The notes: generated from the letters alone by a model not told the origin. DNA of 64,000 nt from Chloroflexota bacterium (GCA_964291655.2 OZ219802.1:1696001-1760000); one strand, 5' to 3'. Positions 2,268 through 18,403 are shown, counted from the first letter of the stretch. Program-made: numbers and translations.

Positions 2268-2501
2268 GAGACCTTTGCATAACCCCACTTTCAAGCAGGG
2301 CACTCCCTCTCCTGGGGGAGAGGGTTGGGGTGAGGGGGTCTTTTTGCTACAATGGCCCTTTACGCTGGGAAGTGTCAAGACGTATCAGGGCAGATTCGGT
2401 GTGCATGTGGATAGCTTTCAGGAGATTCACCCTCACCCTAGCCCTCTCCCGTCGAGGGAGAGGGAACTATTTCGCTACCGCTTGAGTTGCGCAAAGGTCT
2501 C
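2268..2501. mobile_element. Non-autonomous ~234-bp MITE-like shell (copy A), termini GAGACCTTTGC...GCAAAGGTCTC, internal REP hairpins
   Basis: Terminal inverted repeat; flanked by direct repeat CATGTAG (2261-2267 / 2502-2508); related copies at 14166, 46649, 56969. Confidence 0.8.
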
Positions 2502-2504
2502 CAT

Positions 2505-2530
2505 GTAGGGGCACGACATGTCGTGCCCCT
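2505..2530 (+). repeat. GTAG-tagged REP hairpin
   Basis: GTAGGGGCACGACATGTCGTGCCCCT, palindrome preceded by GTAG tag. Confidence 0.75.
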
Positions 2531-2552
2531 CCGGTATGAGGAACAGACCCTA

Positions 2553-3401
2553 ATGGATATCGGCACGGTTGATCTCTGGGCAACGCATTACCGCAGTTGG
2601 CTGCATAATGCCACGCTGTCGGCCAAAGTATTGCTCGTGGTGGCGGTACTTGTGACCGTGATGCTGGCAGACCACGTCGTGCTCTTGCTGGCAACGTACG
2701 GCCTGGTGCTGGCCTTGCTCCTCACTACACCGCTGCCGGTGCTGACACTTGGCGCAACCTCGCTCTACACGGTGTTTTTTGTGGCTATCTTCGCCATCTC
2801 GCGCTGGGACGGCACCTGGCTCACGGTCCTCACCATCATCGCCAAGGCGCCTACAATGGCGCTGGTTGTCCTGCTGCTCGTTGCCTCCACACCCTATCCG
2901 CGCATCTTTGCGCCGCTGAGCCGGTTTCTGCCCGCGTTGGTGGCTGAGAGCCTTCTCATGGCCTATCGCGCGGTGTTTGTCCTGTTGGAACTCACCCGGC
3001 GCTTGCTGCTCTCGCTGCGACTGCGGGGCGGGCTCGGCGGCGGTTCGCCGTGGCAACGGGTTAAGAACCTCAGCATCGGCCTGGGGCTGGTCTTTGTGCA
3101 CAGCATGGACTATGTGCAACGGCTGTATACGGTCATGCGGTTACGGGGCTACGCTGGTCAATTGGCCGGCACGCCGCGTGCTGGGACCGTATCCCGACAT
3201 TCCGGCGGCAGACGGCATCTCTCTGCTCTACTCCGGCGTGATGACGCGGCCCTATGCGGCGTAGCGTTCGTTACTGTTGGCAGCGCGCTCATGGGTCGCG
3301 CCAGCGGGACTGCCTGGCCGATGTACGGTTTGGCAGTGGTGAGTGTTGTCGTTCTGATTGGCGCCCAGCTTTTCCGCATGTTCCGCCGGCCCGCCGGATA
3401 G
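2553..3401 (+). CDS. cbiQ: ECF transporter T component, CbiQ family
   Basis: TM protein with SWLH..AK start, YR motif and LRG...MRLRGY coupling motifs; follows cbiM; ATG 2553 after GAGG. Confidence 0.85.
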   Translation: MDIGTVDLWATHYRSWLHNATLSAKVLLVVAVLVTVMLADHVVLLLATYGLVLALLLTTPLPVLTLGATSLYTVFFVAIFAISRWDGTWLTVLTIIAKAPTMALVVLLLVASTPYPRIFAPLSRFLPALVAESLLMAYRAVFVLLELTRRLLLSLRLRGGLGGGSPWQRVKNLSIGLGLVFVHSMDYVQRLYTVMRLRGYAGQLAGTPRAGTVSRHSGGRRHLSALLRRDDAALCGVAFVTVGSALMGRASGTAWPMYGLAVVSVVVLIGAQLFRMFRRPAG

Positions 3402-3528
3402 GACAGAAGGCACGGCTGTTCCGCATACTGTCACCCATACGCGCGGCCGGCGAGTGAGTAAGCGGTACACGAAAAGCGCGCGCAAGGGTGAAGTGACGGC
3501 AAATGCGGCTCTGGAAGGATAGGGGATT

Positions 3529-4593
3529 ATGATGCGTTCAGTGGTGTCCTACGTACGCGCTTTGGGACTGCTGGTAACCGTGCTTGTGTTGGCTGGCTGC
3601 GCAATGCAGGAACCCTATGCGCAAGAGCCCAATCTGATAGATGGTGAACCGGCGCCGCTCACAGTCGAAGTTCTTAAGAATGCTACATATAAGTCTGACT
3701 TTGTGAAGGGTGGACAGGCGCAGTTGCAGGACGGCGTGTACGAGGAGCAGGTTGCGCCGGACTCCGCCAGTGAGAACACTCTCGCGTTGACCGAACACAT
3801 GGCCTTTGGCGATGTAAACGGTGACAGACTCGAGGATGCTGCCGTCGTGCTGGTGGCAAGTGGGGGCGGCAGCGGCTCGTTCCACACGCTGGCTATCGTC
3901 ATCAACAGAATGGGCAACCCGTTCCATTTTCACTCCGCCGCGCTCGGGGACCGTGTGCAAATCGACTCAGTCGAGATCGAGAATGCCGTCATCACGGTGC
4001 GGATGGTGACACATGGTGAGGGAGATGCCATGTGTTGTCCCACGCAGGCGGAAGTGCGCCGCTACAACTTGGGCTTTGGCGTGCTCAGGTTGCTTGAACG
4101 CATCACGCCGGCCGGCAAACTAACGGAGGAAGCGCTGCGCAACGCCACCTATCAGCATGAGTTTGCCCAGGACGGCCAGGCGCAGTTGCAGGACGGCACG
4201 TACGAAGAGGCAATCGAGGGTTCAGCGAGCAAGATTCACATCGCAATGACGGACGCGGTAGCCTTTGGCGACATCAATGGCGACGGCATATGGGATGCCG
4301 CAGTGGTGCTGGAAGCTAGCGGCGGCGGCAGCGGCACGTTCCGTTCGCTGGAAGCCGTCATCAACGACGAGGGCGCACCGGTGCACGTGGCTTCCGCTTT
4401 GCTGGGCGACCGGGTGAAGGTCGAGGAGATCATAGTTGCGGATCAATACATCAGGGTGCAAATGGTGATCCACGGCGAAGGCGACGGGATGTGCTGTCCC
4501 ACGCTGCGTGTGGTGCACCTGTATCAGTTGAGCGAGGACGGTTTGGTATTGCGCCATCAGGAAGAGAAGGGGCGAGTCGGCGATTCTGAATAG
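3529..4593 (+). CDS. Lipoprotein with two tandem LppP/LprE-like domains
   Basis: Lipobox VLAGC; internal duplication, each half with FGDxNGD, GGGSG(S/T)F, LGDRV and GDxMCCP. Confidence 0.7.
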   Translation: MMRSVVSYVRALGLLVTVLVLAGCAMQEPYAQEPNLIDGEPAPLTVEVLKNATYKSDFVKGGQAQLQDGVYEEQVAPDSASENTLALTEHMAFGDVNGDRLEDAAVVLVASGGGSGSFHTLAIVINRMGNPFHFHSAALGDRVQIDSVEIENAVITVRMVTHGEGDAMCCPTQAEVRRYNLGFGVLRLLERITPAGKLTEEALRNATYQHEFAQDGQAQLQDGTYEEAIEGSASKIHIAMTDAVAFGDINGDGIWDAAVVLEASGGGSGTFRSLEAVINDEGAPVHVASALLGDRVKVEEIIVADQYIRVQMVIHGEGDGMCCPTLRVVHLYQLSEDGLVLRHQEEKGRVGDSE

Positions 4594-4616
4594 CCGGCCA
4601 CAGGCGTACAACCCGA

Positions 4617-4660
4617 CAGCGCAGCCCAGTAAATACTGGGCTGCGCTGCTTTCTTTTTTT
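4617..4660 (+). terminator. Rho-independent terminator
   Basis: 14-bp stem CAGCGCAGCCCAGT/ACTGGGCTGCGCTG followed by T-run. Confidence 0.85.
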
Positions 4661-4790
4661 GACGAGGGGATGTCAGACCGGCGCAAACCGTTCTGGCATA
4701 TTGAGGCATAGAGCCCCTGCCCAAGTTGGCAGGCCCCGATTGCTTCTTGCGTGGGACGAATTTACGTGCAGCCGAGGACTGCAGCCCGCA

Positions 4791-5044
4791 AGCGCTCCTT
4801 GCTTTCGACGACTGCGAGCGCTACTTGAGCTCGACGACTGCGAGCGCTACTTGAGCTCGACGACTGCGAGCGCTACTTGAGCTCGACGACTGCGAGCGCT
4901 ACTTGAGCTCGACGACTGCGAGCGCTACTTGAGCTCGACGACTGCGAGCGCTACTTGAGCTCGACGACTGCGAGCGCTACTTGAGCTCGACGACTGCGAG
5001 CGCTACTTGAGCTCGACGACTGCGAACTCTACTTGAGTTCGACG
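4791..5044. repeat. 26-bp tandem repeat (8 full units plus degenerate ends) reiterating the rplL 3' end
   Basis: CTACTTGAGCTCGACGACTGCGAGCG at 4821, 4847, 4873, 4899, 4925, 4951, 4977, 5003; in register with the rplL stop at 5029. Confidence 0.95.
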
Positions 5045-5415
5045 GTGGCCCCCACCTCTTCCAACTTGCCCTTGACCTCTTCGCCCTCTTCCTTGCTCAC
5101 GCCTTCCTTGATCGGATTCGGCGCCGCTTCCACGGCCGCCTTGGCTTCACGCAGACCCAGGCCGGTGATCTCGCGCACGGCCTTGATGACCTGGATTTTC
5201 TTGTCGCCAATGTCCGTGAGCACGACGTCGAACGAATCCTTCTCCTCTTCAGCCGCGGCGCCGTCGCCATCGCCCGATGCCGCTGCCACCGCGACCGGTG
5301 CGGCAGCCGAAACGCCGAACTTCTCTTCCAAAGCCTTTACAAGCTCTGAGACTTCGAGCAACGTCATGTTCTCGATAGCCCCAATAATGTCCTCAGTCGA
5401 AATCGTCTGTGCCAT
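5029..5415 (-). CDS. rplL: 50S ribosomal protein L7/L12
   Basis: [39 protein letters not shown]. Confidence 0.98.
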
Positions 5416-5516
5416 GTCTTTCTTTCCTTCCGGTAGAATCACATTCGTTCAATAGATTCGATATAGTGTGCAAATCGTCTTCGCCCGGTGAATAGTAGGC
5501 GAGAATGCAGTGACAG

Positions 5517-6050
5517 CTAGGCGCCTTCCGATTGCTGCAACTGATCCGCCCGTGCTTGCAGCACGAGCGCCAGACTTCTTGCCACGGCGCTGAGCACGCC
5601 CACCAAGTTCGTCGCGGGGGACTGCATGCTCCCCAGCATCTTGGCCAGCAGCTCCTCGCGTGACGGCAGCGACGCCAGTGCGCGGACCTCATCGGCGCTA
5701 ATGGCCTGTCCGTTCATTAGGGCACCGCGTACTTCGAGGGCATCCACGCTTTTGGCGAAAGTTGTTAGGGCTTTAGCTACCGTCACCATGTCGCCGTCGG
5801 CAAATGCGATGCCGCTTGGGCCATCCAGCAGTTGGGTGAGGCCAGCCTGGTCTTCCCGCTCCGCAGCCAAGCGCAGCAACGTGTTCTTCGCCACTTTGAA
5901 CTGGCCGCCGGCAGCCCTGAGTTCGCGGCGAAGCGTTTGCATCTGTCCTACGGTGAGACCCCGGTAGTCGGCAACGATGGCCAGATCTGTGCCCCGCAGC
6001 CGCTCGCGCAAGTCTTCGATGATTGCGGCCTTTTCCTCACGAGTTCCCAA
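5517..6050 (-). CDS. rplJ: 50S ribosomal protein L10
   Basis: DYRGLTV, KVAKNTL, LASLPSREELLA; TTG start with AGGAGGTG RBS. Confidence 0.97.
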   Translation of the reverse strand: MGTREEKAAIIEDLRERLRGTDLAIVADYRGLTVGQMQTLRRELRAAGGQFKVAKNTLLRLAAEREDQAGLTQLLDGPSGIAFADGDMVTVAKALTTFAKSVDALEVRGALMNGQAISADEVRALASLPSREELLAKMLGSMQSPATNLVGVLSAVARSLALVLQARADQLQQSEGA

Positions 6051-6071
6051 AGCGCATCACCTCCTCTCTTA

Positions 6072-6250
6072 AAGTAAAAGAACCTTGGCGTCGACCAAGG
6101 TTCTGCGCAGCTTTCTCACGCCCACCACGCTCCGCAATGCGGTGAAGCGCGGCAATCGTCCGTGTGCTGCGGTCTTACCTATACAGGCTTGCCTCGCGCT
6201 TTGAGGATTATACTCCCCCACCGGGAGTGCCTGTGGTCAACGGCATATTT
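6072..6250 (-). promoter_or_regulatory. L10 leader (autoregulatory RNA) with attenuator-like hairpin
   Basis: Minus strand CCGTTGACCACAGG...ATAA...CCTGTATAGG resembles the L10-leader core; hairpin 6079-6104 followed by U-run just upstream of rplJ. Confidence 0.7.
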
Positions 6251-6570
6251 GGGTATTTTCCTCGTGCTCGTGCACGCTTATACCAGCATAGCAGGTGCCG
6301 TGCCGCCCATGCAATCTCCAGTCGCGGCGAAGCTTCAGCCTTCTCCTGGACTCCCCGGCAATGTGCTCCCCTATCGGGTTGAAGATAGGGGAATGGCAGA
6401 AATGGCAACCCAGCAACCGGGGGCAAGCGGAAAGCTGTGTCGACAAGACAGAGACCCTCGCACCGGCCTGCGCCTCGTAATCCTGGCGACAGGGACTCTG
6501 GCATGCAGCCTTCGCTACATGTGGGACACCCTCGGCACGTCCCAACTGAAAACATCCAGCTTAATTGAAT

Positions 6571-6601
6571 GATGGCTGCGGGCAATATGCCCGCAGCCAT
6601 C
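6571..6601 (-). terminator. Probable terminator hairpin
   Basis: GATGGCTGCGGGCA/TGCCCGCAGCCATC stem downstream of the 6667 ORF. Confidence 0.55.
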
Positions 6602-6666
6602 GTCACGCTCTTATCTCATATCCCTGCAAGGAAGCAGGGCTTGCGACGCAAGATCGAGAGCAAGCG

Positions 6667-7965
6667 TTATTCTATATTCACAACGATGTCAACCGCCATC
6701 TCGTTACGTCGTGAGAGGAAGGGCGCCACCGAATTCAGCATGTCTCCTGCCTCGTCACCGGCAAAAGCTGCTGCAACCGTAGCCAGGTTTTGCAGGGCCT
6801 CATCGTCTCCCAAGAAAACGGTCATAGCATACACGTCATCCAGGTAGATATCAAGGCCTTGCGGGACCAGCTTGACAGTAATCGTGCTCAAGCCGCCTTC
6901 CTTCAAGCCTGCCACTGTGTCAGCCGGAAGCATACCAGGCATGCTCAGATTCAAGCCAATGGCTTCGAGCAACGGCGCGGTATTTTCCAGTATGACAACC
7001 TCAGGCACCAGCAGGTCTCCGTTGGCGTTCAGGACCGTGCCGACCAACAGCGGGTATTGGTTTTCCGCAGCGCCGGGAACGTCGGGAGGCTGCGATGTTT
7101 CGCCGGTGAACTTGTCTACCGCTGCCGCGCCGTCCGCCGTGGGGAAATCCACAGCAACGGTGCCAATCATCGCCAGTGCCAGGGGCACCGCGAGATCAGG
7201 CAGGACCACGTCATAGCCAAGTCCTTTGACAAGCGAAATTACTTTATCCAATGCGGCTGCATCATAATTTACGGAAACGCGTACAGCAAAGCCGCCATTG
7301 ACGTAGACGTCAATATCGCCGCCCGGCCCTTTGATGAGTTGGATGTGTTGAAGATTGGCCGTCTTTAGCGATTCGATGGCTGAGGCCGATAGGACTTCAC
7401 CAATACCGAGCTGGCTCAGTTCGCCTTCAGAAAGACTAAGGTTGAACTGTTGCCCGGCAAGGTGCATCCCGACCTCTATGCCGCTGACACTGCCGTCTTC
7501 ACCGAACTGAACGGCTGCCTGGGGCAAGCCATACACTTCGATTGATTCTTCAGCGCGCTCCGGAGGTGCGCCTGGACCGGAAACCGGGGCTACCTCTGAG
7601 AGACGCGCTGGCGCAAACGGTGTAGAAAGCCCGTGGCTGACAAAGCCGGTCGAAACGATCAAGAGTGAAGCCAGCAGGCCTACTATTCCGCCGATGATCA
7701 AGCCGACAATGCCCACGGCCTGACCTGTACCGGTACCACCACCTAGTTGGTGCCCTGCCTTGTAGCCAAGCCCCGCGCCTAGGTAGAGCAGTGAGAAGAG
7801 CAAACCAAAACTCACCAAGAACAGAATAGCTGCGAACTTAGTGAGTCCCCCACCGACCGCTACCAGAACAATTAGAGCGATGATGACAAGGACCAACCAC
7901 AGAATTGGTACGGGCACCCACCAGTGTCTCCAGGTGGTCATAGCCTTCCCTCTCTGTGCTTGCAT
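6667..7965 (-). CDS. Uncharacterised membrane-anchored protein (3 N-terminal TM helices plus repeated acidic domain)
   Basis: 432-aa ORF, hydrophobic N-terminus, domain shared with the 8121 ORF (HIQLIKGPGGDIDVYVNG). Confidence 0.75.
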   Translation of the reverse strand: MQAQRGKAMTTWRHWWVPVPILWLVLVIIALIVLVAVGGGLTKFAAILFLVSFGLLFSLLYLGAGLGYKAGHQLGGGTGTGQAVGIVGLIIGGIVGLLASLLIVSTGFVSHGLSTPFAPARLSEVAPVSGPGAPPERAEESIEVYGLPQAAVQFGEDGSVSGIEVGMHLAGQQFNLSLSEGELSQLGIGEVLSASAIESLKTANLQHIQLIKGPGGDIDVYVNGGFAVRVSVNYDAAALDKVISLVKGLGYDVVLPDLAVPLALAMIGTVAVDFPTADGAAAVDKFTGETSQPPDVPGAAENQYPLLVGTVLNANGDLLVPEVVILENTAPLLEAIGLNLSMPGMLPADTVAGLKEGGLSTITVKLVPQGLDIYLDDVYAMTVFLGDDEALQNLATVAAAFAGDEAGDMLNSVAPFLSRRNEMAVDIVVNIE

Positions 7966-8023
7966 GCATTCATGGTTTCAAGTCTAACGATCATGCAAAG
8001 ATACTGTCTGTCTTTCTAAGCAA

Positions 8024-8059
8024 TGAGGGATACCCTTGGGGCGCGTAGGGTATCCCTCA
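8024..8059 (-). terminator. Intergenic hairpin (terminator or RNA-stability element)
   Basis: TGAGGGATACCCT...AGGGTATCCCTCA inverted repeat. Confidence 0.55.
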
Positions 8060-8120
8060 CATCACCTGCGTATGACGGGGAGCGTAGTGCTTTTCCTGAT
8101 TTGCACTACTGCAACCCTTC

Positions 8121-9113
8121 TTACGGCAGGCTCACCGTCAGGTCAACGTCAATGCGGTCACGCAAGTGCAGGTAATCCAGCGCCAAGCCGGCCTGGGGTG
8201 CGAACGCAGTGAGAATACCCAGTGCGTCGGCGTTCCCAAGGCGAACGTCAGCCAGCATCTCGCCGTTGCTGCCCAGTGAGAGCCCGTCATTGTTAATCTT
8301 GACGTTCAACTCGCTGATGCCGTTGGACGCCATGAGGGCAACGATATCAGCTGTAAGATTAGCAACTGTACCGAGGCCAAGCTCTGCTGCGGACATACCC
8401 AACACCGAGAGATTGCCATCAGCATCGTAACTAACGTTGGCTTTCGCCATCAACTCAATCTCTTGTTGCTCGGTACCCACGTAGCCGGAAGGTGCGCCTT
8501 CTTCACGGACCGGGATGTCCGAATCACCAATGGTAATGACCACGTCACCGCCAGAAGCGATCACCACGGGAACCACGACGTCCTTCAAGGGGATACCGAA
8601 ACCGGTGAAACCTTCCACCAGAGCCAATACCCGCTCGTAGTTCGCCGCATCCTCACCCAAGTTTACACCGATGGTGTAGGCGCCGTTGACGTAGATGTCA
8701 ATCAAGCCGTCCACGCCCTTAACAATCTGTAGGTGCTCGACACCAGCGGCCGTAAGCAAGCCTAAGGTCATGGCATCGAGACCCAGCGCCGGCACAGGAA
8801 TACCGAACGCGCCCAGCGCGGCTAGGTCTTTCGCTGAAATACTCACCGGCGTAGCCGTGCCGCCAATAAATACGCTAGTCGTTACCGACTGCAGCGAACC
8901 ATCGTCACCAAGGGCGATGGTAATTCGAGGCGGCACGATCACAACTTCCATCTGCCCCGCAGATGCGCTGGATTGAGCCGCTGAAGCGATGCGCGCGGGC
9001 AGCGATACTGCCAGCAGCGCAACTATTACCGCAATCACGAGAGCGACCTGGACAAGGGAACTGTACAGGAACGTCCTATCGAGTGATTGGGTAGGGTATC
9101 TGGTAATACGCAT
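8121..9113 (-). CDS. Uncharacterised exported protein, paralogue of the 6667 ORF
   Basis: Signal/TM segment; HLQIVKGVDGLIDIYVNG; AGGAGG RBS. Confidence 0.75.
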   Translation of the reverse strand: MRITRYPTQSLDRTFLYSSLVQVALVIAVIVALLAVSLPARIASAAQSSASAGQMEVVIVPPRITIALGDDGSLQSVTTSVFIGGTATPVSISAKDLAALGAFGIPVPALGLDAMTLGLLTAAGVEHLQIVKGVDGLIDIYVNGAYTIGVNLGEDAANYERVLALVEGFTGFGIPLKDVVVPVVIASGGDVVITIGDSDIPVREEGAPSGYVGTEQQEIELMAKANVSYDADGNLSVLGMSAAELGLGTVANLTADIVALMASNGISELNVKINNDGLSLGSNGEMLADVRLGNADALGILTAFAPQAGLALDYLHLRDRIDVDLTVSLP

Positions 9114-9228
9114 TGATCCCTCCTCCTGAAGATCCGTTCGGGTTCGGTACGCCCCTTCACCGAACGCTACCTATAAAGATACTTTCTGCTCACCACGATT
9201 TTGATACCCACGGTGTGGTGCTGCTGAC

Positions 9229-9257
9229 ATTATGGGGAACGCACAAATACCTGTCAA
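9229..9257 (-). promoter_or_regulatory. Sigma70-type promoter
   Basis: Minus strand TTGACA (9257-9252), 17 bp, CATAAT (9234-9229). Confidence 0.7.
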
Positions 9258-9863
9258 GGACAAAGCCCAAATTCAGCCTAAAAATTGGCAAGAATCAGGG
9301 AAAAACCTGCATATGACCTACAACAATGATGTGTCAATGCTATAAATGGCTGCTAAAGACGCTCCTTGTTCCATTGACAAGACCATTTTGCATAGAATTG
9401 TCGGATGAAAAAGCTTGACAGCATTTTTGAAGTGGGATCAGCAAGAAAGAGTGTATTCCTCCGATTCTTCGGATTCCTGCGACACAGCATGGGGTTTCAG
9501 TGACGAATCCTCAGGCTTTGGAGATGCTTCCTCCTGTCCTGGGCCGCTCCCAGTCTGGAGGAGTCTAGGCGCTTGCACCCCAAAGTAACGGCTCCCGGCG
9601 CTGCGGCGCCCTGGCACGCACTGGAACTAATGGAAAACCGCGTTAGTGAAATTGCACGCCGGTTGGAGGTGAAGTCGACGCGGGCTAGGGACCAATTCAG
9701 TGTGGTAGCTGCCGCGGCAGCTCCTCAAAGCCGCTTGCTCGGAGGCGCGCGGCGTCCCTGTATATGACGGTGACGTAGCTGCGGCGCAGTGTCCCAAGGC
9801 TTCGGTTTGGAGGACTTCTCCACAAGCAAGCGGCCGGACACAGCCGTGTGCGGGCGCAACAGC

Positions 9864-10340
9864 CTAAAAGGCGGGGCGGGTCGCCGGCATTTCGAGAACG
9901 TTCTGCGCGCGTTCGAGAAAGTCATCGTCCGTGGTGGTAATGACCCGCGTAGAGACGTTGCCGCGCGGGTTGAACTCCATCATGAGCAGCGCGCCCCGCG
10001 GCTTCAGCCCTGCCAGCAATTCGTCGAACAGTTCGTTGGTGATGCGCTCGTGGGAGAAGTACTTGTCGCGGAAGCTATTAAAGTAAAGCTTCAACGTCTT
10101 TAGGTCCACAATGCGCGCGTCGGGCACGTACACCATGGTGGCGACGGCGAAGTCCGGGTACCCGGAAACGGGGTCTTTGAACGTCAACTCCGGCAGGCGA
10201 ATCTGCACGTAGTAGTCACGCTTGGGTTCAGGATTTGGGAAGTAGCGAATCTCTACGGATTCAATCTCTTCTTCGCCATAGCGCGCCTGGCGTCTTCTCC
10301 GCTTCCCGCTCGGCCTCTTGTCTGATTCCGGATTGCTCAT
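9864..10340 (-). CDS. queF: QueF (preQ1 synthase)-like T-fold protein lacking the catalytic Cys
   Basis: FPNP, PELTFKDPVSGYPDFA, DLKTLKLYFNSFR, SHE, FNPRG; Asp at the canonical Cys position. Confidence 0.8.
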   Translation of the reverse strand: MSNPESDKRPSGKRRRRQARYGEEEIESVEIRYFPNPEPKRDYYVQIRLPELTFKDPVSGYPDFAVATMVYVPDARIVDLKTLKLYFNSFRDKYFSHERITNELFDELLAGLKPRGALLMMEFNPRGNVSTRVITTTDDDFLERAQNVLEMPATRPAF

Positions 10341-10544
10341 CCTGTGGGTCCTAAATGCGGTCAAATGAAGGCGTGTATGATTGGAAAGTAGCATGCGTGC
10401 GCATGCTGCAAAACCTATGAATATGACCGTACTATGTTGCTTTGCGAAACGTCAACTCACTACCGGCGCGCAGGCGCTAGGCCAGTGATCCTCCGCCAGC
10501 GCCGAGGGACAACCTGCACAACCCGTACCGGCAGGCGAGAAGAT

Positions 10545-11062
10545 TTCCCTCTCCCCGGGGGAAGACCAACGTATATAATCGCGCCTGCAAGCGGGATTGC
10601 CGCCTCTCCCTCGGAAGACCCACATGAACCCCACGTGAGCAGGCGGCAACTCTCCCTCTCCCCGGGGAGAACTTCGCATAACCCACACCGGCGAGGGAAA
10701 GTCCCCTCTCCCGGTGGAGACCTTTGCGTAACTCCGTCATTCCGGCGAAAGCCGGAATCCAGAGTGCTTTTACAACGAAAGAAAGCATGATGTCAAGTCG
10801 TTTCACCCCCATCCCAACCATCCCCCAAAGGCGAAGGGCTATGAAACGGTCTCCGGCGGGAGAGAGTTAGAGCCTGCCCCGTACTCGGTACGGGGTATCG
10901 AGTACGGGGGTGAGGGGAGTCCCCTCTCCCGGCGGGAGAGGGTTAGGGTGAGGGGGAGATTCCCGCATTCTGGGAGTTGCTTTTACCGTTATTGCATTCT
11001 TGCGTATCGGTCTTGTTGGTGAAGAGGATGGGTTATGCAGAAATCCCCTCACCCCGGCCCTC
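10545..11062. repeat. Cluster of CCCTCTCCC/GGGAGAGGG REPs with a GAGACC-ended shell (10717-10853) carrying a CGTC REP
   Basis: Multiple palindromes; CCGTCATTCCGGCGAAAGCCGGAATCCAG at 10734-10762; block partly repeated at 14060-14160. Confidence 0.75.
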
Positions 11063-12349
11063 TGTATAGACCAGAGAGATACTTAACGGGTGTGCGCAGA
11101 CATACTTTACACAGTATGGCACTCTTTCTGAGTAAAGAAGGAGGTGCCTCATGCCTTGGAAGGAGAGTACTGCTGTGGATGCTAAGCGCGAATTCGTCGC
11201 TTTGGCGCGAGCGCCGGGGGCGAACATACGCGCGTTGTGTCGACGCTTTGCGATCTCGCCGCCCACTGGCTATGCCTTGCTGCATCGTTACGCCGAAGAG
11301 GGGGAAGAGGCCTTCACGTCCCGCTCGCGTCGGCCGCACCACTCGCCGCGGCGCACGCCATCTGCGGTGGAGGCGGTCGTGGTAGAACTGCGCAAGCGCC
11401 ACCCGGCGTGGGGCGGTCGCAAGCTCCACCACGCACTGCTGAACGCCGGTCACACGGTGGTTCCCAGCCCCAGCGCCATCACCAACATCCTCCATCGGCA
11501 CGATCTCATCGACCCGGTGGAGCGAACGCACCGGGACTGGCAGCGCTTTGAACACCCGTATCCCAACGACCTGTGGCAGATGGACTACAAGGGTCACTTC
11601 GCCGTGGACGCCGGGCGCTGCCACCCGCTCACCGTCTTGGACGACCACTCCCGCTTCGCCGTGGGTCTGTGGGCCTGTGGGGACGAGCGGGCAGACACGG
11701 TGCGGGCATGTCTGACGAGTGCCTTTCGCCGCTACGGACTGCCGGCGCGTATGCTGATGGACAACGGGTCGCCGTGGGGCAGCAATGCCGCGCACCCGTA
11801 CACCAGGCTTACCGTCTGGCTGCTGCGGCTGGGCGTGTCGGTGAGCCATGGTCGCCCCTACCATCCGCAGACCCAGGGCAAAGAGGAGCGGTTCCACCGC
11901 ACCTTGCAGGCTGAGGCGCTGCAAGGCAGGCGGTTCGCCGACCTCGCGACCTGCCAAGCGGCCCTGGACCGCTGGCGGGACGTCTACAACCTGGAACGAC
12001 CGCACCAGGCCCTCCACATGGCAACGCCCCTGAGCCGCTACGCGCCGAGCCGCCGCTCCTTCCCCGAGGAACTCCCCCCGATCACGTATGGCGACGGCGA
12101 CGAGACGCGCAAGGTGATGGCGGAAGGTTGGGTCAACTTTCAGGGACGAGAGTTCCGCGTCGGCAAGGCGTTTGTGGGTTGCCACATCGGCCTGAGACCA
12201 ACCACCAGTGACGGCGTGTGGAGTGTGTGGTTCATGACCCACCACATAGCAGAGCTGAACCTGCGCGGACCTCTGCCCCGTGTAGAAATACCAACTCATG
12301 TGTAAAGTATGTCCTCGTACACCTGTAAACTATGTGTCAGGTCTATACA
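11063..12349 (+). mobile_element. IS481-family element, copy 1 (1287 bp)
   Basis: Ends TGTATAGACC...GGTCTATACA; 5-bp target duplication CCCTC (11058-11062 / 12350-12354). Confidence 0.95.
11151..12305 (+). CDS. IS481-family DDE transposase
   Basis: MPWKE start, HTH, WQMDYKG / MDNG / GKEERF catalytic triad, YNLERPHQAL. Confidence 0.95.
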   Translation: MPWKESTAVDAKREFVALARAPGANIRALCRRFAISPPTGYALLHRYAEEGEEAFTSRSRRPHHSPRRTPSAVEAVVVELRKRHPAWGGRKLHHALLNAGHTVVPSPSAITNILHRHDLIDPVERTHRDWQRFEHPYPNDLWQMDYKGHFAVDAGRCHPLTVLDDHSRFAVGLWACGDERADTVRACLTSAFRRYGLPARMLMDNGSPWGSNAAHPYTRLTVWLLRLGVSVSHGRPYHPQTQGKEERFHRTLQAEALQGRRFADLATCQAALDRWRDVYNLERPHQALHMATPLSRYAPSRRSFPEELPPITYGDGDETRKVMAEGWVNFQGREFRVGKAFVGCHIGLRPTTSDGVWSVWFMTHHIAELNLRGPLPRVEIPTHV

Positions 12350-12361
12350 CCCTCTCCCCAA

Positions 12362-14005
12362 GAGGGTGTCTCAAAAATAGATCTACTGGATATATACTGG
12401 TGTGAAGAGAAGCAAGGTGAGGTGGTGGGATAGTTTGTAGAGAGGTAGTGACGATGCCGTTGAGACCGTTTAGTCGTGAACAGGCCTGGCTGTTGCCGCC
12501 GACGCTGGACGAACTGATCCCGGACGACCATCCTGTCAGGTTTGCGGCAGCGTTCGTGGACAGCCTCGATGCTGCGGCCTGGGAGGCGATGGAGATTGAC
12601 CTGCAAGGCGATCCGCGTGGCGCCGGGGCCTACCATCCGCGCGCGCTGCTGGGCGTATGGGTCTACGGCTTCATGACCGGCGTGCGCTCGAGCCGCAAGC
12701 TGGAGGCAGCCTGCCGGGATCAGGTACCGTACCTGTGGCTGGTGGGGATGCAGCAGCCGGACCACAACACGCTGTGGCGCTTCTACAAGGCGCACCGCGA
12801 CCGGATGCGGACGCTGCTCAAGCGCACGGTGCGCACGGCGGTGCGAGCCGGCCTGGTGGAGTTGGCAATCCAGGCGGTGGACGGCACCAGGATCGCGGCC
12901 AACGCCGGGACGCGGCATACCCACGACGCGCAGGGGCTGCAGCGGCTGTTGTCCCGCACCGAGCAAGCGATCGCGGACCTGGAGGCGCAGAACGCCACGG
13001 GGGGCGACGCGCCGCCAGCGACTTTGCCGCAGGAACTTGCCGATGCCCAGGCCCTGCGGCGGCGGGTGGACGACGCGCTCGCCCGCGTCGCGGCTGAGGA
13101 CGGGCCGCGCTACACGAACCTGACTGATGCGGACGCGGCCCTGCTCAAGACTGGCATGGGTGGCTTCATCACCGGCTACAACGCCCAGGCGCTGGTCTCC
13201 CCTCTTGCGTCCCCGGACGAGGGCGCAGGGGGGAGGTTGATCACAGCCGTGGACGTGAGCGCCAGTGCCGACGACCATCCCCACCTGGCGCCGCTGATCG
13301 AGGCGGCGCAGGAGAACATCGACGCCGCGCGGGACGTGGTGACCGTTGCGGACGCCGGCTACCATTCGGGGGCCAACCTCGCCACGTGCCACGCCGGCGG
13401 CCACACGGTATTGATGCCCACGACCCACGAGCGCAGACGCCGCAACCCCTACCATAAAGACCACTTCACCTACCGTCCAGAGACCGACACCTACCTGTGT
13501 CCCCAGCAAAAGGTGCTCACCTACACGCACCGCTTGACCCACAGCAACGGCTACCGGGTCAAGCGGTACCAAGCCAACGGCCGGGACTGCAGAACCTGTC
13601 CGGCCTTCGGCGTCTGCACCTCCTCCCAGAGGGGCCGCTCCATAAAGATCAGCGCCTACGAGCCAATACTGCAACGGCACAGGCAGTTGATGGCCACCGC
13701 GCCTGCCAAGCAGGTGTACCGCCGCCGGAGTACCATCGTCGAGCCGGTCTTTGGCCTGCTCAAGGAGTGGCACAGTGCCAGGCGCTTCCTGCTCAGAGGC
13801 CGCAGCCACGTGACGTCCGAATGGCACCTGCTGGCCACCGCGTTCAATCTCAAGAGCCTCCACGCCCTGTGGCGGTCTGGGTGTAGTCCAGCGTCGCCCC
13901 GGGGACGAGTCTCTCACTGGCACCGTCTTGTTCATACCACCCGCCATCTGTCTGTCCTTCTCACCCCATTCACCGTGCCCCGCACCAAAATATTGAGACA
14001 GCCTC
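12362..14005 (+). mobile_element. IS1182-family element
   Basis: IRL GAGGGTGTCTCAAAAAT, IRR (rc) GAGGCTGTCTCAATATT; 4-bp target duplication CCAA (12358-12361 / 14006-14009). Confidence 0.9.
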
Positions 14006-14076
14006 CCAAGGAGAGGGGGCAGTTCTTGCGCCTCCGGCCGGGGTTACGCAAAGTTCTCCGGGGAAGATCCACATGA
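12448..14076 (+). CDS. IS1182-family transposase (ORF runs past the right IR)
   Basis: QAWLLPP, SSRKLE, AVDGT, GYNAQ, ADAGY, CxxCP, RRxxIVEPVFG motifs. Confidence 0.92.
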   Translation: MTMPLRPFSREQAWLLPPTLDELIPDDHPVRFAAAFVDSLDAAAWEAMEIDLQGDPRGAGAYHPRALLGVWVYGFMTGVRSSRKLEAACRDQVPYLWLVGMQQPDHNTLWRFYKAHRDRMRTLLKRTVRTAVRAGLVELAIQAVDGTRIAANAGTRHTHDAQGLQRLLSRTEQAIADLEAQNATGGDAPPATLPQELADAQALRRRVDDALARVAAEDGPRYTNLTDADAALLKTGMGGFITGYNAQALVSPLASPDEGAGGRLITAVDVSASADDHPHLAPLIEAAQENIDAARDVVTVADAGYHSGANLATCHAGGHTVLMPTTHERRRRNPYHKDHFTYRPETDTYLCPQQKVLTYTHRLTHSNGYRVKRYQANGRDCRTCPAFGVCTSSQRGRSIKISAYEPILQRHRQLMATAPAKQVYRRRSTIVEPVFGLLKEWHSARRFLLRGRSHVTSEWHLLATAFNLKSLHALWRSGCSPASPRGRVSHWHRLVHTTRHLSVLLTPFTVPRTKILRQPPKERGQFLRLRPGLRKVLRGRST

Positions 14077-14165
14077 ACCCCGCGTGAGCGAGCGGCAATT
14101 CCACCTCTCCCTAGGAAGACCAACGTAATACCCGCCGGCAAGGGGGATTACTCCCTCTCCCCAGG

Positions 14166-14400
14166 GAGACCTTTGCATAACCCCACTTTCAAGCAGGGGC
14201 ACTCCCTCTCCTGGGATGTATAGACCGGGTTGAGGGGGTCTTTTTGCTACGATGGCCCTTTACGCTGGGCGTGTCAAGACATATCAGGGCAGATTCGGTG
14301 TGCATATGGAGAGATTTCAGGAGATCCACCCTCACCCTAGCCCTCTCCCGTCGAGGGAGAGGGGACATCTGCGCTGTGGCGAGGGTTATGTAAAGGTCTC
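14166..14400. mobile_element. GAGACC-ended MITE-like shell (copy B) with a 17-bp IS481-MITE scar at 14217-14233
   Basis: Near-identical to 2268-2501; internal TGTATAGACCGGGTTGA. Confidence 0.8.
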
Positions 14401-14701
14401 CCCGGGGGAGAGGGTCGGGGTGAGGGGGAAGCAGTGCCGGCCAAGTTCAACATCAGTTGTCTCGCACAGTTTCACAAGACCTTTTAAGGGGTGTCTTCGT
14501 TTATTTCAGTAGCGCGAGACGTGCTCCCGGCATCTGCGTACGGCCGGTTGCAGGCGCTGCATTGACGCAGGAGCCAAGCATGCACGCAAGCGCTTGCACT
14601 GCCAAGGAGATTCTCCACGTAAGTAGGCATGGAACGGCGCGTTAGACGATAATAGAGAAGCTCTGCATTCAGATACTGCTAACGAGAAAGGTGAGAGACT
14701 G

Positions 14702-15685
14702 GTGGCAAAGGTATTCATCGGCGCACGTTCCATCCTTGATCTTCCCGGGCCGCACTGGGACACGCTGCGCAATGCCGGCGTGGAGCTAGCTCCACCGCTC
14801 GACGTGTTTCGCCCGCTTACCGAACAGGAGCTCATCGACAACCTTGACGGCGTCGTGGCTTTCGTTGCCGGCTCGGACCACTTTACCGAGCGCGTCTTTG
14901 CCGCCCATCCGCAGCTCAAGATCGTGGCCCGCGTCGGCGTAGGCTACGACCAGATCGACGTGGACGCCGCCACCAGACATGGTGTCTGGATCACCATCAC
15001 CCCCGGAGCCAACAACGATACAGTTGCCGACTATGCCTTTGCTATGATCTTGGCGGTGGCGCGGCAGCTTGTGGAGCATGCGGCTATTGCCCGTGACGGC
15101 GGGTTTCACCGCGTACAGGGCGTGGACGTGTGCAATAAGACCCTGGGCATTCTGGGTCTCGGCCGCATCGGCAAGTCGGTGGCCCGGCGCGCCAGCGGCT
15201 TTAACATGCGAGTGCTGGCGTACGACGTAATGTGGGATGAAGCCACGGCGGCGGAACTCGGCGTGGAGTTTGCGGAACCCGAAGCGCTCTTTGCGGAAGC
15301 GGACTTCATCTCGGTCCACCTGCCGAGCACGCCGGACACCGTCAAATTCATCAACGCCGACCGGCTGGCGCGCATGAAACCCAGCGCCTACATTGTTAAT
15401 ACCGCCCGCGGCAGCCTGGTGGACGAGGAAGCGCTGGTGGCCGCCATTGACGCGGGTCAACTGGCCGGCGCCGCCTCAGACGTCTTCTCCGTCGAACCTC
15501 CACCCGCAGACCACCCCTTCTTAACCCACCCCAAAATCCTGCCCTTCCCCCACGTGGCCGGCGTCACCCAAGAATCCGTCCACGCCATGGTGGTCATGGC
15601 CTTCGAGTGCCTCATTGACGTCATCCAAGGCAGACGCCCGCCGTATCCGGTAGACGAACAGGCGGAGTACGAAACTCTACCCTAG
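14702..15685 (+). CDS. D-isomer-specific 2-hydroxyacid dehydrogenase (SerA-like)
   Basis: RVGVGYD, GLGRIG, NTARG, DVF..EP, PHVAG. Confidence 0.9.
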   Translation: MAKVFIGARSILDLPGPHWDTLRNAGVELAPPLDVFRPLTEQELIDNLDGVVAFVAGSDHFTERVFAAHPQLKIVARVGVGYDQIDVDAATRHGVWITITPGANNDTVADYAFAMILAVARQLVEHAAIARDGGFHRVQGVDVCNKTLGILGLGRIGKSVARRASGFNMRVLAYDVMWDEATAAELGVEFAEPEALFAEADFISVHLPSTPDTVKFINADRLARMKPSAYIVNTARGSLVDEEALVAAIDAGQLAGAASDVFSVEPPPADHPFLTHPKILPFPHVAGVTQESVHAMVVMAFECLIDVIQGRRPPYPVDEQAEYETLP

Positions 15686-15838
15686 GTACCACTGACGTTT
15701 GTCTGAAAGGCAACGGCATAGACGCTCGACAGGCATCGAGTGTGGCACCGAAACGTCGAATAGCGGTGGCTCCGCAATTTGGCACCGATAGCGCTCACTT
15801 CGCGATCTGTCGTCGTGTGAATGGAGCGGTGGCCCGCT

Positions 15839-15895
15839 CCGTCATTCCGGCGCAAGCCGATTGTTCCGTCATTCCGGCGAAAGCCGGAATCCAGG
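15839..15895 (+). repeat. Two tandem CGTC-type REPs (first truncated) upstream of the GIY-YIG gene
   Basis: CCGTCATTCCGGCGCAAGCCG and CCGTCATTCCGGCGAAAGCCGGAATCCAGG. Confidence 0.85.
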
Positions 15896-15904
15896 GGATC
15901 GCTA

Positions 15905-16192
15905 ATGAAACCAGGCTATGTCTATCTCCTAGCAAGTAAGCGCAACGGCACCCTCTACGCGGGCGTAACTTCCGATCTCGTACAACGGGTGTGGCAGCAC
16001 AAGAGTGACCAGGTTGAAGGATTCACCAAGCGCTACGGTGTGCACACATTGGTTTGGTACGAAATGCATGAAACTATGGAGAGTGCGATTAGGCGGGAGA
16101 AGGCCATCAAAGAGTGGAAGCCGACCTGGAAACTCGAGCTGATTGAAAAGGAAAATCCCACATGGCGGGATCTGTACGAGGAAATTGTCTGA
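15905..16192 (+). CDS. Stand-alone GIY-YIG nuclease
   Basis: GYVYLLAS..NGTLYAGVT..L..R...H, AIRREKAIK, NPTWRDL. Confidence 0.9.
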   Translation: MKPGYVYLLASKRNGTLYAGVTSDLVQRVWQHKSDQVEGFTKRYGVHTLVWYEMHETMESAIRREKAIKEWKPTWKLELIEKENPTWRDLYEEIV

Positions 16193-16260
16193 AATGCGAC
16201 CTTGGAACAGATTCATACGTGGATGGGCGAATCCTGGAGGTCGAGTTCCCTCCCCCGGCT

Positions 16261-16376
16261 CCTGGACTCCGGCTTGCGCCGGAGTGACGGCGCGGGATGT
16301 CACGTTCGACGGTGGCAGACTCAATTTATGCACGCCGTACCATCCCCCTGGACTCCGGCTTTCGCCGGAGTGACGG
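16261..16376 (-). repeat. Two inverted CGTC-type REPs downstream of the GIY-YIG gene
   Basis: CCTGGACTCCGGCTT(G/T)CGCCGGAGTGACGG at 16261-16290 and 16347-16376. Confidence 0.85.
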
Positions 16377-16578
16377 AACAGGATATCCCTCTCCTAGCGG
16401 TGAAGTTGGTGGATTGAGTGGCCTACGTAGCACGGGAAGTTACCAACATTCTCGTTAGGTTCGACGGTCCGTTCGTGGTGTCTCTTGAGGGATTTCATTG
16501 ACTGTGGTTGACTACCTGTTCTCTCCACGGTCTGTCCGATGATGTACGAGGCTGTTCCGGTTGATTTGTGCGAATACC

Positions 16579-16899
16579 CTAACGGGGTGAGGTTGGTGGG
16601 CACCCGCACTTCGGGACGATAGACTCCTGCTCCCGGTTTCCCGCCAGTGTCATGCGATAGTCGGCCTCGAGCGCGTTCCAGAATTGGGGGCTGATGCCAA
16701 GCACTTCCCCCAGACCGATCGCAGTATCCGGCGTGATGGCCTTCTTGCCTTTGATGATTTCGTCTACCGCCTCTGCCGGTTTGCCGAGCCTTGCCGCAAG
16801 CTCTTTCTGGGTCATGCCGCGAGCATCAAGTTCCTCCTCTAGAACTTCGCCCGGCGGGATCGGCAGATCAGAGAAGACACGCGCAGAATCAGACTTCAT
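16579..16899 (-). CDS. higA: HigA/VapI-family antitoxin (orphan)
   Basis: PPGEVLEEEL, MTQKELA HTH, IIKGKKAITPDTA, FWNALEADY. Confidence 0.85.
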   Translation of the reverse strand: MKSDSARVFSDLPIPPGEVLEEELDARGMTQKELAARLGKPAEAVDEIIKGKKAITPDTAIGLGEVLGISPQFWNALEADYRMTLAGNREQESIVPKCGCPPTSPR

Positions 16900-16927
16900 A
16901 GTGGTTTCTCACGTACTCGATCATCAC
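16889..16927 (-). pseudogene. Possible 3' remnant of a higB toxin gene
   Basis: Reads VMIEYVRNHYEV* overlapping the higA start, resembling HigB C-termini; no room for a full toxin gene. Confidence 0.4.
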
Positions 16928-16944
16928 CTATTCTTCACAAAATC

Positions 16945-16980
16945 CAACAGGTCTGGGACGAAACCGTCCCAGACCTGTTG
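16945..16980 (-). terminator. Terminator hairpin
   Basis: 16-bp perfect stem CAACAGGTCTGGGACG/CGTCCCAGACCTGTTG. Confidence 0.75.
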
Positions 16981-17017
16981 TTTCTCAGACCAATTATAGT
17001 CTGTGAGCGATCCAGTC

Positions 17018-18403
17018 TTACTGTACGACGGAGTTGGCTTCCCACTCGTCCATCAGTTGCTGGGTCTTTTGCTCGGCCTCTTTGATGGCCTCGGGAATGG
17101 TCTTCAGGTGCTGCCAGGCATCCCGGCTGAGCTGGATGTGCGCGCCGAGAATGTCGGGGCCGCCGGCTGCGGTGACCACCCAGTGCGCGCCCGGCATCTC
17201 GTCGATGGCGTGTGCGCGGTCGGGGTCACCCTGGATGAACTCTTCGCTCCGGCCAACGGACTTGCGCACCGGAATGCGGTCCCAGCGATCGGCCCAGCGG
17301 CGGTCCTGCGGCTCCATGAAGAGGAACTCGAGGAACTTGAATGCGCCCTCAGCGGACTTCGCGCCGGTAGGAATGACGTTGGACCAGCCACCGCCGTAGG
17401 TCGCGGGCTCGCCGTCGTCCGGATACGGCTCAAATACTACGCTGTAGTTAATCTTGGCGTATTCCTCAGCGAACGCCGTATTCTTGGGCGTGCTGTAGGT
17501 ATCAAAGAACATGCCGACGCCACCGCCGGTAAACACGAGTGCTGGCGAGATATCGCCGCGGAAGGCCTGCACGGCGTCCCAGCCGCCCTGCGCGTCGTAG
17601 AAGCGGGTGCTGTGCTCCAGCGCCGCAACCATCTCCGCATTGTCCATGGTGGCCTTGCTCTCGTCAGCGCTGGTGAGATCCATGCCTTGCTGCCAATAGG
17701 GAATCATCCAACCGGCAATGATACCGGCGCTGCCCCAGTTTGGCACAAAGCCCAGGCGGGTAATGTTCTCACCTTCTAGCGTGTGGATCCTGCTCGACGC
17801 GTTGTGAAAGTCCTCCCAGTTCCCGATCGGTTCTTCCGGATCGAGGCCGACCTCAATCAGAATGTCGTGGTTCAGGAAGAGCGTGCGGGTGTCCGGGCCC
17901 CACGGCCAACCAAAGTGGCGGCCTTTATACGTCACGTCATTGAGGATTCGCTCCCAAATGTCGTCCGGCTGCATCACGCTGGAGGCCTTCACGAACGGCG
18001 TGATGTCCATAGTCGCGCCTACTGCGGCGTGCGACTTCGTGATGTAGCGGTCGAGGAACGAGATATCAGGGGCGCTGCCCGCCGCGACCACGGTGGGAAG
18101 CTTGCTCTTGGTATCGCCGTACGCGGTACCGACGGCAAATACCTCGACCTCATCCTGTGACGCGTTGAACTCAGCGACCATCTCGGCGCCAATGTCCTCA
18201 TGGAAAGGCTGCGTCGTGTGGGACCAATAGAGCACCTTCTGCTTGTCCATCATGGTGTCTTTGGCTTCCATCTCTTCGGACTCTGCCGGCGTGTCGCCAG
18301 CCGGAGCCATGCCTGCGCCTGCGCCGCAGGCGGCCGCAATTGCGGCAGTGATCCCGACGCCCATGCCGCCGAGGATGGTTCGTCTCGAAAAACGAGATTT
18401 CAT
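17018..18403 (-). CDS. Carbohydrate ABC-type solute-binding lipoprotein (Tat signal)
   Basis: SRRTILG twin-Arg, AAAC lipobox, SBP family 1 motifs (APDI, YGGGW, AFKFLEFL); no permease adjacent. Confidence 0.85.
   Translation of the reverse strand: MKSRFSRRTILGGMGVGITAAIAAACGAGAGMAPAGDTPAESEEMEAKDTMMDKQKVLYWSHTTQPFHEDIGAEMVAEFNASQDEVEVFAVGTAYGDTKSKLPTVVAAGSAPDISFLDRYITKSHAAVGATMDITPFVKASSVMQPDDIWERILNDVTYKGRHFGWPWGPDTRTLFLNHDILIEVGLDPEEPIGNWEDFHNASSRIHTLEGENITRLGFVPNWGSAGIIAGWMIPYWQQGMDLTSADESKATMDNAEMVAALEHSTRFYDAQGGWDAVQAFRGDISPALVFTGGGVGMFFDTYSTPKNTAFAEEYAKINYSVVFEPYPDDGEPATYGGGWSNVIPTGAKSAEGAFKFLEFLFMEPQDRRWADRWDRIPVRKSVGRSEEFIQGDPDRAHAIDEMPGAHWVVTAAGGPDILGAHIQLSRDAWQHLKTIPEAIKEAEQKTQQLMDEWEANSVVQ

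Follow-up and report, generated by a model that had tools for sequence, protein, structure and literature searches.

To our knowledge, all characterised members of the QueF lineage (QueF and QueF-L) work through a cysteine thioimide. In Bacillus subtilis QueF, according to PMC13740343, Cys55 is the covalent nucleophile and the C55A and C55S variants are inactive, Asp62 serves as the proton donor, the 2-amino-4-oxo face of the ligand is held by Glu97 together with the His96 backbone, and Glu78 contacts N9 of preQ0 and lines, with the cysteine, the nicotinamide entry channel. Cys55 is prone to oxidation, and a backdoor Cys53 shields it through a disulfide (PMC5372742). In section 3.4 of the latter paper, membership of the family requires Cys55, Asp62, Glu97 and the motif E(S/L)K(S/A)hK(L/Y)(Y/F/W), which includes Glu78, and sequences in which any one of these is missing are left out as 'non-QueF'. 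Here we describe a gene at 9864..10340 (minus strand, stop codon 9864-9866) of a 64,000-nucleotide (nt) stretch from a Chloroflexota bacterium (GCA_964291655.2 OZ219802.1:1696001-1760000; the window), whose product is a QueF paralogue with aspartate in place of the catalytic cysteine. Open-access PMC and bioRxiv texts, the supplements of PMC5372742 and PMC10516641 excluded, yielded no description of a natural QueF with Asp at this position.

Aspartate at the catalytic position

The longest open reading frame of the gene starts at 10394, and its start was set at 10340 from the MS.. start common to all 17 orthologues of the genus, giving a product of 158 residues. Judged by its sequence, this product is a clear unimodular QueF homologue. 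It matches the Pfam family QueF (PF14489) with 81 bits against a cut-off of 27.3 and the NCBIfam model for preQ(1) synthase (TIGR03139) with 110.8 bits against a cut-off of 86.9, and because both scores exceed the curated cut-offs, databases name the Asp-type protein preQ(1) synthase. Against the FolE profile (PF01227) it reached 18.6 bits, below the cut-off of 27, and a search of the ESM Atlas returned QueF clusters exclusively. In a phmmer search of the PDB, B. subtilis QueF (4f8b_A) matched at E 1.6e-18, its residues 31-132 pairing gap-free with residues 31-132 of the Asp-type protein.

The active-site loop, E51-F64, is encoded at 10149..10190 (minus strand, like all features within the gene), where the reverse complement reads GAG TTG ACG TTC AAA GAC CCC GTT TCC GGG TAC CCG GAC TTC and translates to ELTFKDPVSGYPDF, at the place of the canonical EFTxxCPxxGxPDF. 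The GAC codon at 10173..10175 encodes Asp56, which stands at the thioimide-forming Cys55 of B. subtilis QueF in the 4f8b_A alignment. The QueF (NADPH) motif at 10083..10106 (residues 79-86) reads DLKTLKLY, with Asp79 for Glu78 and with K81, K84 and Y86 retained, and His97-Glu98, the equivalents of the His96/Glu97 anchor of the ligand's 2-amino-4-oxo face, are retained at 10047..10052. Asp63 pairs with Asp62 and Phe34 with Phe33, Val77 of the B. subtilis enzyme is likewise kept, and P125-R126-G127 is present. A first-pass annotation of the window, made by a model from the sequence, had proposed this loop with Asp for the catalytic Cys, an intact frame without any cysteine, the DLKTLKLY reading and the retention of the PDF aspartate (D63), the glutamate of HE (H97-E98) and PRG (125-127); the reverse complement, the 4f8b_A alignment and the 158-residue translation of 9864..10340 bear out all of these. 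Set against the definition in section 3.4 of PMC5372742, the protein has Asp62 and Glu97 and lacks Cys55 and the Glu78-containing motif, two of the four defining features, the rest of the motif besides Glu78 being present.

Thirteen sequences of the Asp clade were compared with 137 relatives that had been chosen for carrying Cys. Position 79 is Asp in 13/13 clade sequences and Glu in 99% of these relatives, position 52 is Leu where 93% of the relatives have Phe, and position 54 is Phe where the relatives have Cys (65%) or Ser (26%); loss of the backdoor cysteine at this last position would fit a protein that has given up thiol chemistry. R32, K55 and R99 are basic residues new to the clade near the pocket, and about 20 further clade-specific changes stand alongside the two Asp replacements. 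Kept in the clade are E51, T53, P57, G60, P62, D63, F64, K81, K84, Y86, R91, H97, E98, N102, R126 and G127, among which E51, P57, P62, D63, K84 and E98 are invariant in the clade and the 137 relatives alike, and E98, the Glu97 substrate anchor, is the same in all 108 aligned sequences. This residue pattern suggests an active site that was remodelled rather than eroded. Total absence of cysteine is unremarkable for the genome: the Cys content of nine conserved neighbour genes is 0.59%, which gives a probability of about 0.39 that 158 residues hold none. The notable features are instead which residue occupies the catalytic position and how well it is conserved.

Conservation, distribution and origin of the Asp form

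Loss of the catalytic cysteine, taken alone, would fit a private mutation, a sequencing error or the decay of a pseudogene. Across 61 genomes searched (the window's genome and 60 relatives), however, the Asp form was present in 17/17 genomes of the genus at 86-100% identity, with the frame intact in every one. The Asp56 codon is GAC in 16 of the 17 species and GAT in the other, and adjacent codons differ synonymously. Pairwise Nei-Gojobori comparison over 139 gap-free codons (135 usable pairs of 136) gave medians of 0.042 for non-synonymous divergence (dN), 0.884 for synonymous divergence (dS) and 0.048 for their ratio (range 0.023-0.096), against a median dN/dS of 0.136 for the canonical QueF paralogue of the same genomes described below, and the Asp form is the more tightly constrained of the two. 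Twelve further protein clusters and an independent metagenome contig carry the same motif. Decay, error and private mutation, refuted by the 17 intact frames and the low dN/dS, are given almost no credence here, and the Asp form is a fixed state under purifying selection. The first-pass annotation had argued for a selected variant rather than decay, and in this it was right: close relatives share the aspartate instead of keeping Cys, and selection on the gene is not relaxed.

A word-indexed protein search returned 11 clusters at 85-96% identity and a further one, P0013, at 69%, all with ELTFKDPVSGYPDF, as well as five more distant matches, which bear Cys. From 1.84 billion representatives at 50% identity, 2190 matched at E <= 0.001, P0006 being the only clade member among them and the next best match being 49% identical. 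The loop pattern fits 146 of 166 proteins, 132 with Cys, 13 with Asp (every one a clade member) and one with Arg. The 20 proteins that it misses include P0152 and P0165, which are without Cys and have a loop shortened by one residue (E[IL]TF[LF]G..QPDF), and P0072, a singleton cluster, which has Asp and is the sole other Asp-bearing homologue found. A wider Asp family that would include P0072 was considered and rejected, as this protein joins the clade only at a Shimodaira-Hasegawa-like approximate likelihood ratio test (SH-aLRT) support of 83-86 and on a long branch. Elsewhere among the homologues, P0051 keeps Cys, with the next residue Lys instead of Pro and with an Asp in its QueF motif, and the ELTFKCP loop of P0053 is the nearest Cys-bearing version of the clade loop.

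When one genome was scanned for each GTDB species, 37 loci were found, of which 15 are Asp-type (86-95% identity) and are all titled as Chloroflexota or Chloroflexi metagenome-assembled genomes (MAGs). The other 22, at 41-51% identity, come from Prochlorococcus, relatives of Campylobacter and Helicobacter, a Hydrothermarchaeota MAG and others; five of these were read, four having Cys and one giving no motif match by pattern. JGI metagenome contigs added three loci, one of Asp type at 99% identity and two of Cys type. Viral contigs held no relative, and a viral origin was rejected on that ground. The distribution of the Asp clade is very narrow, comprising one genus of uncultured Chloroflexota.

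Phylogenetic analysis recovered the Asp clade as monophyletic, with SH-aLRT 99 in a tree of 38 rows picked from 84 and 92 in the 84-row tree, and placed it among QueFs of the 'SGYPDF / FNPRGNV / SHE' type. The canonical paralogue and the QueFs of the class's other families lie across a branch of SH-aLRT 99 from it. A recent duplication within the genus was set aside because this branch (38 rows) splits the paralogues; constraining the two to group lowers the log-likelihood by 33.9 units at an approximately unbiased test value (p-AU) of 0.076, which is suggestive and not a formal rejection. A long stem (0.85) leads to the Asp clade, within which branches are short, a shape that suggests rapid change at first and constraint afterwards. 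Going from TGY to GAY takes two base changes, as the first-pass annotation had pointed out, and since either path crosses an inactive residue, the change would fit a gene copy that the other QueF had rendered dispensable.

Canonical paralogue, probable salvage pathway and gene neighbourhood

The window's genome (G000) also encodes a canonical QueF on its contig C2 (locus L001, 1474..1920, minus strand; TIGR03139, 114.8 bits), which retains Cys, Asp62, Glu78 and Glu97 and is 33% identical to the Asp-type protein. Canonical copies were detected in 16 of the 17 genomes of the genus, the exception being a genome that is 69% complete, and in G000 and 10/10 other genus genomes fetched the gene adjoins that of a Vut_1/YhhQ-family transporter. 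One or two Amidohydro_2 genes also flank the canonical queF across the genus. The paralogue has oddities of its own, namely PDT for the PDF of the family, Gln at the His96 position and a long stem branch (1.4-1.6).

The genes tgt, queA and queG scored above their cut-offs in the window's genome, with tgt and queA on contig C1 and queG, like the second queF, elsewhere on C2, the contig of the window, and the genome holds one Vut_1 gene and one TGT-family gene. No queC or queD/PTPS was found in this genome, which is 97.6% complete. With tgt, queA and queG present and queC and queD not found, the genome fits a queuosine-precursor salvager, matching the 'preQ0 salvage' configuration that PMC5372724 describes for YhhQ-bearing bacteria. 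Among the 61 genomes sampled in the class, QueC scored above its cut-off in just 3 and a QueF-type gene was found in 38; given the rarity of QueC, dependence on preQ0 salvage seems widespread in the class and not special to this genus. The statement in the first-pass annotation that no que genes lie nearby is correct, the window holding no other, and of the pathway genes it had suggested seeking elsewhere in the genome, a canonical queF and tgt are there whereas queC and queD did not turn up.

Around the Asp-type gene the order is rplL, rplJ, a gene of 432 residues (6667..7965), a gene of 330 residues (8121..9113), a spacer, the Asp-type queF and a divergent 2-hydroxyacid dehydrogenase gene. 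Of ten genus loci compared, nine show the same order on either side of the gene and the tenth, at a contig end, shows the Asp-type queF and the dehydrogenase gene, such that the dehydrogenase side is kept in 10/10. A conserved Asp clade with a shared neighbourhood, for which the first-pass annotation had proposed a search, is found in the form of the 13 sequences and this gene order. The 432- and 330-residue genes, both on the minus strand, match no Pfam family and encode paralogues of each other (28% identity, E 5e-22); they lie between the Asp-type queF and rplJ and are conserved at 75-91% identity across the genus. We read a hydrophobic N-terminal stretch in each sequence and take both for putative membrane proteins.

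An operon of the Asp-type queF with these downstream genes was ruled out by the poorly conserved spacer of about 750 nt and by a sigma-70-type promoter belonging to the 330-residue gene itself (9257-9229, minus strand; 11 of 12 consensus positions matched). Right after the stop codon lies a terminator-like hairpin (9831..9846, minus strand), a consensus match only, of which shuffled sequences contain a mean of 2.0, and on this basis the Asp-type queF appears monocistronic. About 80-115 nt upstream of its start, comparison of the 17 species revealed a near-invariant block of 37 nt containing TTGACG (10420..10456, minus strand). This is probably the gene's own promoter or operator, the latter being possible because the block is conserved beyond a promoter's need. 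A preQ1 riboswitch at either the Asp-type or the canonical queF was rejected, Rfam having given nothing at gathering scores in window positions 1-20000 and chance-level matches only at E-value thresholds in window positions 9000-11200 and the canonical locus. A conserved leader RNA was rejected as well, RNAalifold returning -1.18 kcal/mol and one pair with a double change for the 17 upstream regions.

Two transposase genes on the plus strand, one IS481-like with rve (11151..12305) and one of DDE_Tnp_1_6/DUF772 type (12448..14076), lie between the Asp-type queF and the dehydrogenase gene. Both are absent there in ten other genus loci compared, and the pair (11151-14076) is an insertion particular to the window's genome. 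Short palindromic repeats (CCCTCTCCCCGGGG.. units) fill the variable upstream intergenic region at 10534..10946, pieces of which match many unrelated RNA-library contigs. Four RNA runs gave contigs that cover 9000-9204, ending near 9204, together with short repeat pieces; the gene lies outside them, and they are uninformative either way on its expression. Runs labelled sponge metagenome contain 27-39% of the sampled words, and no habitat claim is drawn from this.

Possible functions and relation to known systems

An AlphaFold2 model based on the 108-row alignment (mean predicted local distance difference test, pLDDT, 88.9) had B. subtilis QueF (4f8b/4fgc) as its top structural matches (E ~1e-11, TMq 0.68). 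Predicted as a homotrimer (residues 18-158), the protein reached an ipSAE of 0.72 against 0.00 for the best control, with at least 78% of contacts common to the runs and a pLDDT of at least 81; in calibration, 20 of the 30 proteins solved as pairs reached this mark, and so did 1 of the 23 solved as single chains. The score shows likeness rather than proof of assembly, and the solved QueF decamer may explain it. In the predicted interface E98, R99 and N102 of one copy meet N36-E38, Y43-I47 and I77 of the next, with E98 set against I77, N36 and Y43. The interface includes a clade-specific C-terminal extension (9867..9932, minus strand) whose helix spans residues 139-149. These models predict a unimodular T-fold with its active site between subunits.

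As Cys55 is replaced by Asp, the thioimide that starts preQ0 reduction is impossible, and the Asp-type protein cannot act as a preQ1 synthase in the way known for QueF. We favour, tentatively and with somewhat less than even confidence, a neofunctionalised unimodular QueF paralogue in which the T-fold, self-association interface and intersubunit pocket have been kept and cysteine chemistry given up. Held with the same reserve, the residues of the pocket would point to a 7-deazaguanine enzyme or binder that needs no cysteine and works at the preQ1 level, in a cell that salvages precursors. Such a protein would still bind a 7-substituted 7-deazaguanine base, and probably NADP(H), and would handle a cationic preQ1-level species whose aminomethyl or iminium group lies between Asp56 and Asp63; it is the three carboxylates around the 7-substituent and N9 region that would favour a cationic substituent. 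One option is a protein confined to the second, cysteine-independent half of the QueF reaction, from imine to preQ1, which would amount to a reductive amination of 7-formyl-7-deazaguanine or the reverse oxidation, and another is a tight preQ1 binder. The canonical QueF and the YhhQ-type transporter would meanwhile provide for ordinary preQ0 reduction in a cell that could not make preQ0. The ligand, NADPH use and reaction that we infer here draw on PMC13740343, which reports that cysteine mutants of QueF still bind preQ0 non-covalently with NADPH binding unimpaired, that the second hydride goes to the free imine after C-S cleavage with no Cys needed, and that E. coli QueF E89A and E89L (the Glu78 position) release 7-formyl-7-deazaguanine.

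Several points weigh against this interpretation. The clade is young (at least 67% identity), which makes retention of the NADPH motif weak evidence of its use, and the motif helix contributes ligand and interface contacts too. We know of 7-formyl-7-deazaguanine solely as a leak product of mutant QueF and not as a natural metabolite. The neighbours are silent on function, consisting of two membrane proteins with a promoter of their own and a divergent 2-hydroxyacid dehydrogenase, and neither a riboswitch nor a conserved leader structure was found with Rfam or with RNAalifold on the 17 upstream regions. Finally, a basic N-terminal tail is left unexplained.

This tail (KRPSGKRRRRQAR; 10281..10319, minus strand), clade-specific by orthologue comparison and predicted to be disordered, has at least six Lys or Arg per ten residues in 12/12 genus-level forms and in 1/144 Cys-bearing relatives. 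Its presence speaks for a non-catalytic pseudoenzyme serving as a preQ0/preQ1 buffer or trap, as a regulatory subunit of the canonical QueF or Tgt, or as an RNA binder by way of the tail, a set of roles that we think unlikely, if deserving of serious thought. Synechocystis QueF is an RNA binder validated by a polynucleotide kinase (PNK) assay (PMC12475003), nucleophile loss normally kills QueF whilst non-covalent preQ0 binding persists (PMC13740343), an active paralogue stands alongside in 16/17 genomes, and strong purifying selection suits a binder as well as an enzyme. However, the replacement is always Asp and is joined by a second Glu-to-Asp change in the same pocket, with Asp62 kept, which resembles a rebuilt active site. 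Mixed oligomers are also made less likely by the 33% identity of the paralogues and the SH-aLRT 99 branch of the 38-row tree between them, and P0013 and P0072 carry Asp without the basic tail.

Retention of all other catalytic and binding residues along with the NADPH motif would also suit an oxidation-proof, cysteine-independent nitrile reductase isozyme, which would take preQ0 to preQ1 with Asp56 polarising or protonating the nitrile and no covalent adduct. Oxidation-prone Cys55 normally needs its protective disulfide (PMC5372742), every family-typical Cys is gone here, and E. coli QueF C190A and C190S reportedly convert preQ0 to preQ1 without side products, which PMC13740343 takes as a possible thioimide-bypassing pathway. 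We nevertheless regard the isozyme as improbable: the same paper also states that C55A/S and C190A/S abolish activity, and that changes at the Glu78 position, itself altered in the Asp-type protein, derail reduction in E. coli QueF. Moreover, the canonical QueF is retained under selection in the same genomes (dN/dS 0.136), and the path from TGY to GAY crosses a dead intermediate.

The three carboxylates and the histidine that, by alignment, would surround the 7-substituent and N9 position, with the new cationic residues R32, K55 and R99 near the pocket, could also serve a new hydrolytic or metal-assisted 7-deazaguanine chemistry. Asp56, Asp63 and His97, with or without Asp79, would here bind a divalent metal or activate water, as in preQ0 hydration to 7-amido-7-deazaguanine or in the cleavage of 7-deazaguanine nucleosides or nucleotides, with the ribose placed where Glu78 was shortened. 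Candidate roles put forward in the first-pass annotation were nitrile hydration or hydrolysis and the binding of a deazapurine or pterin. Among T-fold proteins, FolE uses a metal at the homologous Cys (see also PMC5699537), and the QueD paralogue DpdL has its catalytic Cys changed to Leu (PMC10516641). Yet such chemistry leaves the retained NADPH motif unexplained, no DpdA-type DNA-modification gene was found and the genome's TGT-family gene is single, and the neighbourhood holds no pointer to nucleoside salvage; we consider it a long shot.

The furthest-reaching claim is that Asp56, Asp63 and Asp79 replace thiol catalysis, which would make this the first natural carboxylate-based QueF-fold enzyme, with a reaction so far assigned to no protein. 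We hold this to be possible but doubtful. Candidate reactions are NADPH-dependent formation of preQ1 from 7-formyl-7-deazaguanine and ammonia (or the reverse), thiol-free nitrile reduction and preQ0 hydration. Were it true, symbiotic Chloroflexota would possess a new branch of queuosine-precursor salvage, and nitrile or imine biocatalysts would gain a new template. A cysteine-free copy under tighter constraint than the canonical paralogue would show that the QueF pocket has a second use in bacteria living on salvaged queuosine precursors. The weight of these implications is limited by the confinement of the gene to one genus of uncultured bacteria and by its uninformative context. The clade would represent a natural experiment on the two residues to which QueF engineers have given most attention, and its recognition would correct a systematic mis-annotation by pipelines that name the protein preQ(1) synthase. 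Beyond the first-pass annotation, the analysis adds the recognition of Glu78 to Asp as a second active-site change, the canonical paralogue, the clade-specific basic tail and the very narrow distribution.

Compared with B. subtilis QueF, the Asp-type protein has the same fold and length class and the same Asp62, His96/Glu97, Phe33, Val77, K..K.Y and PRG, and its anchor Glu likewise faces the neighbouring subunit in the predicted interface. It differs in having Asp for Cys55, Asp for Glu78, Phe for Cys53, Leu for Phe52 and no Cys anywhere, in adding the basic N-terminal tail and the C-terminal helix, and in sharing its genome with a canonical QueF. The same two positions are altered in engineered QueF mutants (B. 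subtilis C55A/S; E. coli C190A/S and E89A/L), but these are single laboratory changes to Ala, Ser or Leu, whereas in the Asp-type protein both positions are Asp and fixed in 17 species. Slow NADPH hydratase activity is described for the QueF variants E89L and D197A in PMC7317782.

The crenarchaeal archaeosine synthase QueF-L (5jyx/5k0p) is likewise a unimodular T-fold relative of QueF, one that took a different reaction. QueF-L keeps Cys21 and the thioimide and has lost the NADPH site (PMC5699537, PMC5485725), whilst the Asp-type protein shows the reverse, with no equivalent of Cys21 and with K81, K84 and Y86 of the NADPH motif retained. Sequence likeness between the two is weak (E 0.23) and the fold match (TMq 0.57) is below that to QueF. 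Since QueF-L acts on a nucleic acid, preQ0-tRNA (PMC5485725), the basic tail of the Asp-type protein is worth testing. GTP cyclohydrolase I (FolE) is a homologous T-fold and forms the second-best group of structural matches (E ~2e-7), but the Asp-type protein falls below the PF01227 cut-off and carries the QueF-specific motif instead.

The nearest precedent for the Asp-type QueF is DpdL, another T-fold paralogue from a 7-deazaguanine pathway in which the catalytic Cys has been replaced, CxxxHGH having become LxxxHRHxF (PMC10516641). That paper proposes this phage QueD paralogue as a 7-carboxy-7-deazaguanine (CDG) decarboxylase, and thus as a case of new 7-deazaguanine chemistry. DpdL differs from the Asp-type protein in belonging to the QueD/PTPS family and in being encoded by phages within a DNA-modification gene cluster, a context that the Asp-type gene does not share.

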